Assembly (NCBI GenBank): GCA_963732445.1 | Contig: CAVSZJ010000008.1 | Coordinates: 337,008-401,007 of the forward strand | Source: Vicinamibacterales bacterium | GTDB lineage: Bacteria > Acidobacteriota > Vicinamibacteria > Vicinamibacterales > JAMQPK01 | DNA: 64,000 bases | Reading direction: 5' to 3' | Part shown: positions 6,887-41,087 of the stretch, piece after piece | Numbering within the stretch: the stretch's first letter is position 1 | How the letters are laid out: each line of letters begins with the position of its first letter | Made by a program: the position numbers and the translations under genes | Notes under the pieces: generated by a model | The model's database searches: none | Seen by the model: only the letters and a program-made list of their open reading frames with translations | What the model was told of the DNA's origin: nothing

Positions 6887-8799
6887 TGGCCTCGCGCCTT
6901 CGCCCGGGCACGTTGGCCAGCGCCATGCCCAGATTGACATGGGCTTCGGTCGAGTCCGGTTGAATCTTCAGGGCAGCTTCGAGATGCGCGATGGCATCCG
7001 GGTGCCGTCCCGCCACGTCCATCAGCACCGTGCCCAGGTTGTAATGCGTTCGAAAATGATCTGGCCTGATTCGGAGCGCCGCCTCGTAGTGCGCGATCGA
7101 CTCGGCAATACCCGCGGGAGCATCAGACAGCGACAACGCGTTGCCCAGCGCGTAGTGCGCTTCGGCAGAGTTGTGATCGATGCGGAGAGCCTCCCGCAAG
7201 TGCGCGATCGCCGCTGACGTCCCTTCCGGCGTCCTGGATGCGATCGTCGCGGCTTTGATGTGCGCCATCACGAGGTTGTTCGTCGCTTCGAAGTAGTCCG
7301 GCCTGATCGTCCAGGCAGCGTGATACGCGTCAATCGCTTCAGAGACTCGGGTGTCCTGGTGCACCAGCAAGGTTCCGAGATTCTGATATGCGATCCACGC
7401 GCGGGTGTTGCGGGCGATTGATTCGCGATACAGCGTCTCGGCATCTGAATACATCGCGCTCTGGCGCCAGGTCAGGATGCCCAATGCAGCGACGAGCAGC
7501 GCGCACGCGGCCAGCCCTGCGCGACGGCGTGCAGGCGCAGCCGTCATCGCGGCCAGTCCACTGGCGATCGGGACGATGATCCCCAGGCTCGCGAGATATT
7601 GAAAATGGTCGGCGACGTACCGAAAACCGGAATGGGTACACGTTGAAGAACCCGAGAACGGGGAAAAGGGTTCCACAGAAGAACAGAAATCCTGCCAGAG
7701 GACCGCGGGTCCGCCGCGCGACGATTGCCAGCGCGATGGTCATGCCTGCCACCGCAGCGGGAAACAGGTACTGCCACCATACCGACGCATCGATCGTCCA
7801 TCGCGGGTACCAGAACATCAGATCTGCGGGCCAGATCAGCTTACCGAGATAGAACCAGATGACTCGGCCTGCGAGGAGACCCCGCTCGATGAGCGTGAGA
7901 TCGAAATCTGCGCCCCGTGCTCCGATGATGTCGCGCTCGAACCACGCGGTGAACAATCCGGCGGCCACAGCAACCGCAAACCACGGAAGGAGCGGCCGCA
8001 CATCCTGATGCCATCTCAGCCGCCCGCGCCGCCACCACTCGACGACGAGCAGCGCGGCGGGTAGCGTGGCGGTAACCGTTTTGCTGAGCAGCGCGCAGAG
8101 GAAGAGCGCAGTGGCGATCCAGTACCCGGCAGCCCTGAAGGGCTGCACTACCGATGCAGAGGAGGACTGTGCCGGGGTAGCACAGGGCTTCAGCCCTGCC
8201 ACCGCGGTAGCGCAGGGCTTCAGCCCCTCTGCGACCGGGGTAGCGCAGGGCTTTAGCCCTGCCTCTGCGAAGCGGAGATACACATACGCGGACGCGAGAT
8301 AGAAGGCCGCCGACAACGTGTTTTTTTGTTCGGAGATCCACGCGACCGACTCGACGGCGATCGGATGCAGCGCGAAGATCAGCCCTGCGAGCAATGCCCC
8401 GGGGACTGCCAGCGCGCGAAGGATGAGCACGAGAAGCACCGCCGACGCCGAATGGAACGCGACGTTCGCCAGGTGGTAGCCAAAGAAGGCATCGCCCCAC
8501 AGCCGATGCTCGAGCCAGAACGCCGAGTGCAGCAGCGGGTAGTACTGCTGTGTCGCACCGACCTCAGACCAGATGCGCCACAACCCACGGAGTGAGCGGA
8601 GCTGCGGCCCCGTGATATGACCAAGGTCGTCCCATAGCGGACCGCCATGCAGCGCGGGGTGGTACGCCAGAAACACCGCCACCGGAATGAGCACCCACGA
8701 ATAATCCGCGCGCGGAGGCAGGCTCGCAACCCGCTTGCGTTTCACGAAGTGTACATACCACGAAAAAAAACGCGACGGCCCAGTCGAGCCGTCGCCCAC
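6771..8799 (-). pseudogene. TMTC/PMT-like multi-pass membrane domain fused to C-terminal TPR repeats; one frame break; carries an in-frame REP insert
   Basis: N-terminal membrane part in ORF 7339..8799(-) (PLWDDLGHI, many hydrophobic helices, ..FFNVYPFRFS). The TPR part is in ORF 6771..7676(-) (..YVADHFQYLASLG.. then repeated AxxxYxxALxxxPD motifs). Junction near 7620-7625 in a T-run. Confidence 0.7.
8129..8263. repeat. Four REP hairpin units inside the coding sequence of the membrane/TPR gene
   Basis: GCAGCCCTGAAGGGCTGCACTAC (8129-8151, inverted), GTAGCACAGGGCTTCAGCCCTGCC (8177-8200), GTAGCGCAGGGCTTCAGCCCCTCTGCG (8207-8233), GGTAGCGCAGGGCTTTAGCCCTGCC (8240-8263). They are translated as ..AEAGLKPCATPVAEGLKPCATAVAGLKPCATPAQSSSASVVQPFRAAG.. 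Unit spacing is 30 and 33 nt. Confidence 0.9.
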
Positions 8800-8833
8800 T
8801 TTCTACTTTCTACTTTCTACTTTCTACTTTCTT
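8796..8833 (-). repeat. Heptanucleotide tandem array (GAAAGTA type, ~5 units)
   Basis: Plus strand reads CCACTTT CTACTTT x4 CTTAG, with strict 7-nt register. It lies between the stop of the TonB receptor gene (8846-8848) and the start of the membrane/TPR gene (8799). Confidence 0.95.
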
Positions 8834-8845
8834 AGTGCCCCCGTG

Positions 8846-40618: not shown

Positions 40619-41031
40619 GTCCCACCGTCTCCCTCGCAGTTGATCTGCCATGGTATGCCGAATCGATCGACGAGCATGCCAAAACGCGCGGCCCAGAATG
40701 TTTTTTCGAGCGGCAGCACGACCCTGCCGTTGCTGGCCAATTCGTGGAAGGTACGCTCCGCGTCCGCCACGCTCTTGATTTGAATCGACAAGGTGAAGCC
40801 CTTGGGGGCCTCATAGCTTCCCGGCGCGACGTCGGCACCCATCAACTCCTGCTCGCCGACCGTCACACCACCATGCATCACCTTATCCTGCCAGTCGGCA
40901 GGGACTTGATCCGTCATCGATGAGCCGGCATATCGAGAGATCGCTCCGAGCCGCCCGCCGAAGCACCGCTCATAGTATTTAAACGCTTCTTCACATTGTC
41001 CGTTGAAGTAGAGATACGGATTGATCTGCAT
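40615..41031 (-). CDS. PhnB-like VOC-fold protein
   Basis: ORF 40615..41031(-), 138 aa. MQINPYLYFNGQCEEAFKYYERCFGG ... FWAARFGMLVDRFGIPWQIN. Confidence 0.75.
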   Translation of the reverse strand: MQINPYLYFNGQCEEAFKYYERCFGGRLGAISRYAGSSMTDQVPADWQDKVMHGGVTVGEQELMGADVAPGSYEAPKGFTLSIQIKSVADAERTFHELASNGRVVLPLEKTFWAARFGMLVDRFGIPWQINCEGDGGT

Positions 41032-41040
41032 GGTCTGTCC

Positions 41041-41087
41041 CTTTTCACTTTCTACTTTTCACTTTCTACTTTCTACTTTCTACTTTC
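41041..41087 (-). repeat. Heptanucleotide tandem array (6-7 units)
   Basis: Plus strand: CTTTTCA CTTTCTA CTTTTCA CTTTCTA CTTTCTA CTTTCTA CTTTCAT. Lies in the 67-bp divergent gap between the PhnB-like and GMC genes. Confidence 0.95.

Follow-up and report, generated by a model that had tools for sequence, protein, structure and literature searches.

We analyzed a 64,000-nucleotide stretch of the chromosome of a Vicinamibacterales bacterium (Acidobacteriota; assembly GCA_963732445.1, contig CAVSZJ010000008.1, positions 337,008 to 401,007; 63% G+C; hereafter the window), in which eleven tandem arrays of seven-nucleotide units, numbered 1 to 11 here, are packed against gene ends. A first-pass annotation of the sequence had reported these arrays and their exact 7-nt register, and both observations were borne out. 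Tandem Repeats Finder reported period-7 arrays at all 11 sites, with 0% indels in nine of them; array 11 had 2% indels at period 7 and 0% at period 14. Reading each array in register confirmed the unit sequences listed earlier. Arrays 1, 2, 3, 8, 9, 10, and 11 are clean (84–100% matches) and arrays 4, 5, and 6 are degenerate (70–84% matches), the right half alone being detected in array 4. A strict detector, which required at least three units with at most one mismatch per unit, found 10 period-7 arrays in the window against a mean of 0.1 (maximum 1) in 40 first-order Markov simulations. At other periods it found three arrays of period 6 and none of periods 8–11. A weak period-7 signal at 21440-21459 is signal-peptide coding sequence, and was not counted as a member of the family. 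As had been said before, these are neither amino-acid repeats nor CRISPR arrays: the units are 7 nt long and lack spacers, compared with the 23–50-nt repeats and unique spacers of a CRISPR array.

Genes in the window were predicted with a self-trained open reading frame (ORF) model and a Pfam check on 40 ORFs. Although 84% of the window is coding, all 11 arrays lie between genes or in terminal codons only. The stop codon of the upstream gene falls within, or directly adjoins, arrays 2, 3, 4, 6, 7, 8, and 10. Arrays 1 and 9 lie 12 and 21 nt past a stop, and arrays 5 and 11 are in divergent gaps, so that the earlier placement of nine arrays 3' of an abutting gene was correct and these nine are polarised, being stop-proximal and in sense. 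The arrays often supply the stop codon itself, with stops in all three frames. The first-pass annotation had further claimed that one strand keeps an NAG triplet at a fixed phase in every unit, and that this strand is always the coding strand of the abutting gene. The second part stands for the co-directional arrays (7/7 sense); it is automatic for the four arrays in convergent or divergent gaps. A phased NAG requires merely an AG in the 7-mer on either strand, which we estimate to occur by chance in about 60% of cases. The strand of the co-directional arrays also carries nearly all local genes and shows a G>C skew. Gene polarity and replication-strand polarity are inseparable within the window; a broader sample, described below, links orientation to the nearest stop codon instead.

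The arrays are described here in the order of their position. Array 1 (8796-8833, minus strand) is (GAAAGTA)5. An outer-membrane beta-barrel gene ends 12 nt before it (stop at 8846), and a GC hairpin, GCGACGGCTCGACTGGGCCGTCGC, with a T8 run (8763-8795, minus) comes directly after it. Array 2 (14493-14527, plus) reads (GAAAGTA)3 GAAAGTG GAAAGTA, gives a DUF3592 gene its TAG stop (14512-14514), and is separated by 11 nt from the stop of a convergent M20 peptidase gene. Array 3 (16281-16305, minus), (GTGGTAG)3.6, holds the stop (16302) of a ThuA-like gene and is followed by an imperfect hairpin resembling repetitive extragenic palindromic (REP) elements. The degenerate array 4 (26054-26109, minus), with units AAGGCGA, GAGCCCA, and AAGTCCA, occupies the entire gap from a glyoxalase stop (26109) to a CAT start (26052). 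Array 5 (26941-26989, plus; (GTAGCTN)7) and array 6 (27504-27538, minus; five units of GGTAGCC or GGTAGGT) form the upstream and downstream arms of an inverted pair around a bAvd/S23p-like gene, and array 6 holds the stop (27530) of a 3-keto-disaccharide hydrolase gene. Array 7 (29721-29804, minus) has 12 units, GTCAGTC followed by CAGAGCC, CAGAGTC, and GAGAGCC, and runs from a NUDIX stop (29801) to the ATG (29720) of an M20 peptidase gene. This peptidase call (465 aa) is backed by protein P0001, and its homologues are annotated Vicinamibacterales.

Further along the minus strand, array 8 (31291-31374) comprises 12 units of TAGAAAG, TAAAAAG, and TGGAAAG; it gives the stop of a 168-aa gene and ends 9 nt ahead of a cupin ATG. 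Array 9 (37780-37849), 10 units of AAAGTAG and AAAGTAA, begins 21 nt past a glyoxalase stop and terminates in GTAG, with a REP-like hairpin at 37761-37778. Array 10 (40577-40618), six units of GTAGAAA, GTGGAAA, and GTGAAAA, gives the stop (40615) of a 138-aa glyoxalase-family gene and has a distal hairpin at 40558-40574. Array 11 (41041-41087; approximately 6.6 units of GAAAGTA, GAAAGTG, and AAAAGTA) occupies a divergent gap, 9 nt before the ATG of the minus-strand gene at 40615-41031 and 3 nt from the ATG (41091) of a plus-strand GMC oxidoreductase gene. Arrays 4, 7, 8, and 10 span entire gaps between co-directional genes and leave no promoter room for the next gene, so they would have to be read through in a polycistronic mRNA. 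Outside these eleven, inverted arrays of the same kind with 6–7-nt units, (GTTCCNN)n and (GGAACNN)n, form a hairpin directly after an FmdA-like stop (33758-33816, minus).

The genes neighboring the arrays are metabolic, and the arrays follow stop codons or fill intercistronic gaps, an arrangement unlike that of phase-variable (contingency) simple-sequence repeats, which are found within an ORF, or between the promoter elements of surface or virulence genes, where copy number switches expression. The TACTTT of the array complement has the TAnnnT core of a sigma-70 promoter; the -35/-10 spacing never fits, however, and there were no promoter-like hits at arrays. A search of the window against Rfam matched no RNA family.

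The hairpin at array 1 (10 pairs, 8 of them GC; -20.7 kcal/mol) ranks first among the terminator-like sites of its region, so that array 1 has a stop codon on one side and an intrinsic-terminator-like hairpin on the other. On the plus strand the order reads as hairpin, then U-rich array. The top terminator-like sites of the plus strand likewise consist of a hairpin with a U-rich array tail, at arrays 9 and 10, and in both regions scanned the top sites abut arrays. REP-like elements with a GTAG head and a GC palindrome occur in the window as a 33-nt unit repeated three times (GGGTAGCGCAGGGCTTCAGCCCTGC; 8172-8263) and as GTAG-T-GTCCGGCTTCAGCCGGAC (37761-37783), which directly continues array 9 and is present four times in a related locus, L120 (15510-15620). 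No RAYT (REP-associated tyrosine transposase) gene was found among the annotated genes of the window. The arrays themselves are not palindromic, and we do not class them as REP elements, imperfect palindromes of 20–40 nt with a GTAG head, or the composite BIMEs (bacterial interspersed mosaic elements), although REP-like hairpins adjoin arrays 3 and 9 and occur at 8172-8263.

Three syntenic loci from related assemblies were used for comparison: L008, from a Vicinamibacterales metagenome-assembled genome (MAG), L119, and L120. L008 is syntenic with window positions 7.4–13.9 kb at 80–88% nucleotide identity; L119 and L120 share the gene order of the window, and each array has matching neighbors to its left and right, with only a few small genes varying. 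Same-site counterparts of arrays 1, 4, 5, 6, 7, and 8 were present in these related assemblies, differing in copy number and unit sequence. Since the orthologous arrays come from independent assemblies, the arrays are not assembly artifacts. Array 1 has five units against approximately three at the L008 site, where the flanks are conserved, including the GC hairpin and T-run directly after the array. The counterparts of array 4 are (GAAAGTA)5-6 (L119 13087-13127, L120 13667-13750), and a terminator follows in both; the reading of an array as the expanded A- or U-tract of a terminator holds at array 1, at L119 13101, and at L120 13777. At the site of array 7 both relatives carry related, GTCAGTC-type units, with a change of unit type. 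Array 8 has 12 units against about 6(+5) in L119 (6501-6576) and 4.6 in L120 (7871-7903). The inverted arrays at 33758-33816 are bigger at the same site in L119 (1524-1649) and L120 (5240-5400), and L120 carries (AAACGAA)4 at a site where the window has a 10-nt gap. The position of an array is therefore long-lived, while its unit sequence, its copy number, and even its presence turn over.

A 21-nt scan for (GAAAGTA)3, using one genome per species, gave at least 118 loci (L001-L118). Among the matches listed, (GAAAGTA)n occurred in Acidobacteriota, Bacteroidota, cyanobacteria (Rivularia, Calothrix, and Oscillatoria assemblies), a "Heliobacteriaceae" MAG, Firmicutes-like MAGs, Patescibacteria, Verrucomicrobiota, and others, and the MAGs JBFWQI01, JADJXM01, and CAZBPH01 each supplied many of the matched loci. 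The geometry of the arrays was then measured over the 118 listed loci plus the window. Inverted adjacent pairs were purine-arm-first in 37 of 37 cases, (GAAAGTA)n...(TACTTTC)m with gaps of 15–200 nt, and the opposite order was never seen; for the most part the gaps had no structure (median z = -0.3). Where the flanking genes are co-directional, solo arrays were in sense in 50 cases and in antisense in 29 (p = 0.024). The median distance from the upstream stop codon to the beginning of a sense array is 1.5 nt; antisense arrays are 153 nt away from the stop, and the next start lies 36 nt off. Convergent gaps held 22 solo arrays and 11 pairs, divergent gaps seven and two, and arrays within genes were antisense in 10 cases and sense in one. 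Among the matches listed, 20 of 22 solo arrays in convergent gaps lay close to the stop of the gene for which the array is in sense. These data give a simple rule: the purine-rich, stop-bearing strand has its 5' end against whichever ORF boundary is nearest.

The earlier proposal of a phased NAG or UAG ladder, read by a TRAP-like protein, can be compared with 881 phased units of the GAAAGTA family. In these AAAGT is 95–100% invariant, and the variable positions are A7 (to G in 7–26%) and G1 (to A in 12–29%), which are the A and G of UAG. Alignment of many copies thus reveals a conserved AAAGT in place of the NAG that had been expected, and arrays 4 and 7 lack UAG altogether. The orthologous arrays, in which unit type changes and place is kept, also speak against the ladder, which we regard as unsupported. 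The modal array length was 4–5 units, a figure biased by the search seed. The unit (GGGGATT)n, a G-quadruplex-forming Nostoc unit, was also seen in a Vicinamibacterales MAG (L107 203-232) and a Bacteroidota MAG (L012 4611-4633).

Arrays 5 and 6 enclose a gene of the PF05635 family (23S rRNA intervening sequence (IVS) protein/bAvd-like; 27107-27481, plus; 124 aa; E = 2.6e-36). Its G+C content at third codon positions is low (0.63 for the containing ORF, 26990-27481), and its product is homologous to XCC0516 (PDB 2GSC, five chains; E = 1e-21). The two arrays are inverted copies, and folding joins both in one stem around the ORF (z = -4.8). The cassette thus resembles IVS-like S23p elements, in which a PF05635 ORF lies inside terminal inverted repeats that fold into a long stem. 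It is not an insertion in helix 25 or 45 of 23S rRNA, as it lies between two protein-coding genes, with no Rfam rRNA match. L120 carries a 75%-identical gene at the same site (12169-12826), between (GGTAGGT)n and (CTACCGC)n, and L119 lacks the gene. A BLAST comparison of the window with L120 showed collinear flanks, including the arrays, and a cassette interior in the opposite relative orientation. By this alignment, the cassette was either flipped between its inverted arrays or inserted twice.

An HMM search of approximately 1 Mb of array-rich loci found only four PF05635 genes, all four bracketed by inverted heptamer-type repeats, in three phyla. Such bracketing was seen at 26941-27538 of the window, L120 12169-12826, L012 4611-5060, and L019 1000-1540, and among L121-L199. 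Among 50 metagenome loci with enough flank, inverted arms surrounded the PF05635 gene in 38, against 3 of 50 for a control of direct repeats. The period-7 self-similarity of the arms was mostly 0.7–1.0, with TAGTTGG-type arms at only 0.1–0.3. The arms are of GGTAG or GGTGG types and never of the GAAAGTA type. According to a supplementary table of Rehm et al. (2015; PMC4692102), a GGGAATC array lies across the annotated start of the XCC0516 gene; in the literature we did not find an association of PF05635 with inverted heptamers stated as a general rule.

The closest known systems are other dispersed heptamers. The short tandemly repeated repetitive (STRR) sequences of cyanobacteria have the units CCCCAGT, TTGGTCA, and CAACAGT. 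The likeness to them drawn in the first-pass annotation holds in form only, as the units here (GAAAGTA, GGTAGNN, and similar) and the host, a member of the Vicinamibacterales, are different, and these arrays are not STRR in the strict sense. As cited in Rehm et al. (2015; PMC4692102), Mazel (1990) described the STRR of heterocystous cyanobacteria as dispersed intergenic tandem heptanucleotides. The first-pass annotation knew of no equivalent in a high-G+C genome. In this it was wrong: Rehm et al. (2015; PMC4692102) describe the same anatomy for GGGAATC arrays in Xanthomonas (about 186 in each genome; 65% GC) and for GGGGA(C/T)T arrays in Nostoc. Approximately 90% of these arrays are intergenic and nearest to the 5'-neighboring ORF. 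In Xanthomonas the G-rich strand is the coding strand, 0–50 bp from the stop or overlapping it, divergent gaps are depleted, and some convergent inverted pairs occur. The same sites in the two species of the Xanthomonas study differ in array length and sequence. In Xac most of the arrays are transcribed; the genes linked to arrays have no functional relation to one another, and the study found no function (PMC4692102). The arrays of the window share with these the exact 7-nt tandem units, the high-GC host, the intergenic position, and the same anatomy. They differ in phylum, in having several unit families in one region, and in units (GAAAGTA, GGTAGNN, AGNCNNN) which cannot form G-quadruplexes.

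Marine Beggiatoaceae have TAACTGA direct repeats placed against start codons, with a patchy distribution across phyla that includes cyanobacteria and Bacteroidetes (MacGregor, 2015; PMC4679880). The likeness lies in intergenic heptamers, a stop-containing unit, and abutment on start codons, as at arrays 4, 7, 8, and 11; the TAACTGA arrays, in contrast, are mostly short (2–6 copies) and described as 5'-proximal, while arrays here are anchored chiefly at the stop codon upstream. Among long simple repeats in prokaryotes, including Burkholderia and Actinobacteria, heptamers are the most frequent, with slippage as the suggested cause (Mrazek, 2007, as summarized in PMC4679880). In Coxiella, the S23p ORF of the 23S IVS lies in the loop of a 28-bp stem cleaved by RNase III, is preceded by GACAGAT heptamers in two to four strain-variable copies, and encodes a homopentameric toroid (Warrier, 2016; PMC4990558). 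Arrays 5 and 6 alone share this plan, a PF05635 ORF in the loop of a long stem of terminal inverted repeats; unlike the Coxiella IVS, the element lies between protein-coding genes rather than in rRNA, and the stem arms are themselves heptamer arrays. HutP binds UAG-N4-UAG-N4-UAG, with two sets of three triplets in one leader. GUAGNNN arrays have this UAG-N4 spacing, making HutP a better geometric analogue than TRAP. UAG, however, is not conserved here, many arrays lack it and so do not carry a triplet in every unit, and the arrays are dispersed, unlike HutP sites. We found no paper containing the GAAAGTA array strings that were searched.

Taken together, the arrays behave as long simple-sequence repeats of the STRR-like kind: they show head-to-tail register without spacers, an excess over composition that is specific to period 7, intergenic bias, stop-proximal placement on the coding strand, depletion from divergent gaps, and same-site variation among relatives. 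We favor, with a probability of about 55%, the reading that they are slippage-driven heptanucleotide long simple-sequence repeats kept in transcribed spacers. They would then belong to the same class as STRR, the GGGAATC arrays of Xanthomonas, and the TAACTGA repeats of Beggiatoa, here on a Vicinamibacterales chromosome: the class is known, while the phylum and the units are new. Slippage or unequal recombination at a 7-bp register may make and resize the arrays; such a process would leave units in exact register and unit variants in blocks, and would lead to the differences in copy number, unit, and presence at orthologous sites. The arrays persist only in non-coding spacers, under a strict geometry. 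It follows from the geometric rule that an array at the 3' end of a gene would be transcribed in sense, as an intercistronic spacer or 3' untranslated region. Because arrays 4, 7, 8, and 10 leave no room for a promoter, solo arrays would be unable to block sense transcription, and they may act mainly as tolerated spacers in that direction. The C/U-rich complement could serve as a U-rich terminator tail against incoming antisense transcription, as the layouts of arrays 1, 9, and 10 suggest. The stop-laden purine strand would be tolerated, and perhaps useful, right after stop codons, and the open pyrimidine strand would be kept away from stops. Inverted pairs would form long stems that tolerate shifts of register and could be substrates for recombination. 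Arrays 5 and 6 enclose the PF05635/S23p gene just as the stem of a 23S IVS encloses its ORF, in a cassette that is inverted between two relatives.

Several points weigh against this account. Slippage alone does not explain the recurrence of GAAAGTA in unrelated phyla, the near-invariant AAAGT, or the opposite orientation preference of start-proximal arrays. Conservation of place across approximately 80% protein identity suggests selection for something else. The gene models behind the geometry came from our own simple gene finder, and we only infer the transcription of the arrays and any role at the RNA level. A GC hairpin adjoins solo arrays on the distal side in 9 of 131 cases, against six on the proximal side; with adjacent hairpins so rare, the role of terminator tail cannot be general. 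For the same reason, and because the gaps of inverted pairs mostly lack structure, we rejected as a general account the related idea that the arrays are expanded A- or U-tracts of intrinsic terminators, which would fit the purine-first rule. A 3'-end or insulator role of the arrays is possible.

A rival reading is a protein-binding ladder. In it, each subunit of an oligomeric protein would recognize one 7-nt unit of RNA or single-stranded DNA, and the protein would govern the formation of 3' ends, stability, or translation. The homopentameric PF05635/S23p toroid is the candidate, with HutP as the geometric precedent, and cold-shock domains occupy 7-nt sites on T-rich strands. We consider a ladder unlikely. 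The near-invariance of AAAGT over 881 units, with flanking positions that vary between purines only, speaks for it, as does the sharing of GAAAGTA by many phyla among the matches listed; unit sequence, however, differs between orthologous sites, one geometry is common to several unrelated unit families, and no part of the unit is less conserved than UAG. The modal length of 4–5 units also speaks for a ladder, although the search seed biases it, as does the preference for four units reported by Rehm et al. (2015; PMC4692102). PF05635 genes are consistently bracketed by heptamer arrays, and the five chains of 2GSC agree with a pentameric toroid; on the other hand, the arms are never GAAAGTA, and only four such genes occur in the approximately 1 Mb of array-rich DNA. 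That the arrays and S23p are two halves of one widespread, undescribed system is a proposal to which we give quite a low probability. It joins three parts. Array stems would be the target of the S23p pentamer toroid or of a partner, for example RNase III. S23p cassettes would be IVS-like elements, able to move or invert, housed in the loops that purine-first array hairpins form. The solo arrays dispersed elsewhere would work as 3'-end or insulator sites and would not be inert microsatellites.

A directional insulator is similarly doubtful. Here the C/U-rich, G-poor complement (UACUUUC, NNCUACC, GAUUCCC), on RNA heading toward an ORF boundary, would load Rho or act as a U-tract after a hairpin and so halt antisense or read-through polymerases before the gene, while the purine-rich, Rho-resistant sense strand lets operon transcription pass. 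The geometry agrees well with this (37/37 pairs and 20/22 convergent solo arrays), as do the lack of any G in the GAAAGTA complement, the plus-strand terminator-like sites at arrays 9 and 10, the bidirectional layout of array 1, and the presence of sense arrays inside apparent operons. However, start-proximal arrays would attenuate the mRNA of their own downstream gene, and a C>G bias is missing from arrays 4 and 7. At 25–50 nt, the majority of arrays fall below a typical Rho utilization (rut) site of about 70–80 nt, and adjacent hairpins are scarce (9/131). We regard as very improbable that the arrays are borders of mobile, integron-like cassettes, or REP/RAYT footprints, marking the insertion and excision of small accessory genes. 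The genes between arrays are indeed small, accessory (CAT, glyoxalases, NUDIX, cupin), and mostly co-oriented, arrays 10 and 11 are direct repeats on either side of the 138-aa gene, relatives have the PF05635 cassette, lack it, or have it inverted, and GTAG-headed REP-like hairpins adjoin arrays 3 and 9. Against this, the annotated part of the window encodes no integrase, transposase, or RAYT, the arrays lack the palindromic structure of attC or REP, and in L119 and L120 the few variable small genes do not consistently have arrays as borders. With gene order conserved in both relatives, the integron-like version was rejected, and the idea is already largely refuted as an account of the whole array family.

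Among the long simple repeats of free-living bacteria, heptamer arrays are the commonest, and they have been without an explained function since 1990. This locus adds a phylum and a cross-phylum unit, GAAAGTA, and yields the sharp geometric rule of purine-rich 5' ends at the nearest ORF boundary, with pairs purine-arm-first. The systematic bracketing of S23p/bAvd-like pentamer genes by inverted arrays, with one apparently flipped cassette, is a concrete lead. If the arrays were insulators, processing sites, or protein ladders, they would be a common piece of bacterial gene-end architecture; otherwise, as slippage-driven repeats, they offer a natural system for the study of slippage and spacer selection.

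Three further observations concern the rest of the window. The adjacent ORFs at 8846-10387 and 11011-12453 match the C- and N-terminal halves of one beta-barrel/TonB-receptor-like profile (PF25183, positions 424-838 and 1-215), and a single ORF in L008 (3121-6690) spans their counterpart; the window gene may be split or frameshifted. At 42895-43848, a 177-aa ORF matches nitronate monooxygenase over no more than positions 141-298 of the profile; a second ORF (43462-43848) lies upstream on the same strand, and this may be a split gene or pseudogene. Finally, a lower-GC stretch at 56–58 kb holds tandem repeats at 57993-58049 (24 nt, 2.4 copies) and 56625-56657 (15 nt, 2.2 copies), which are unrelated to the heptamer family.

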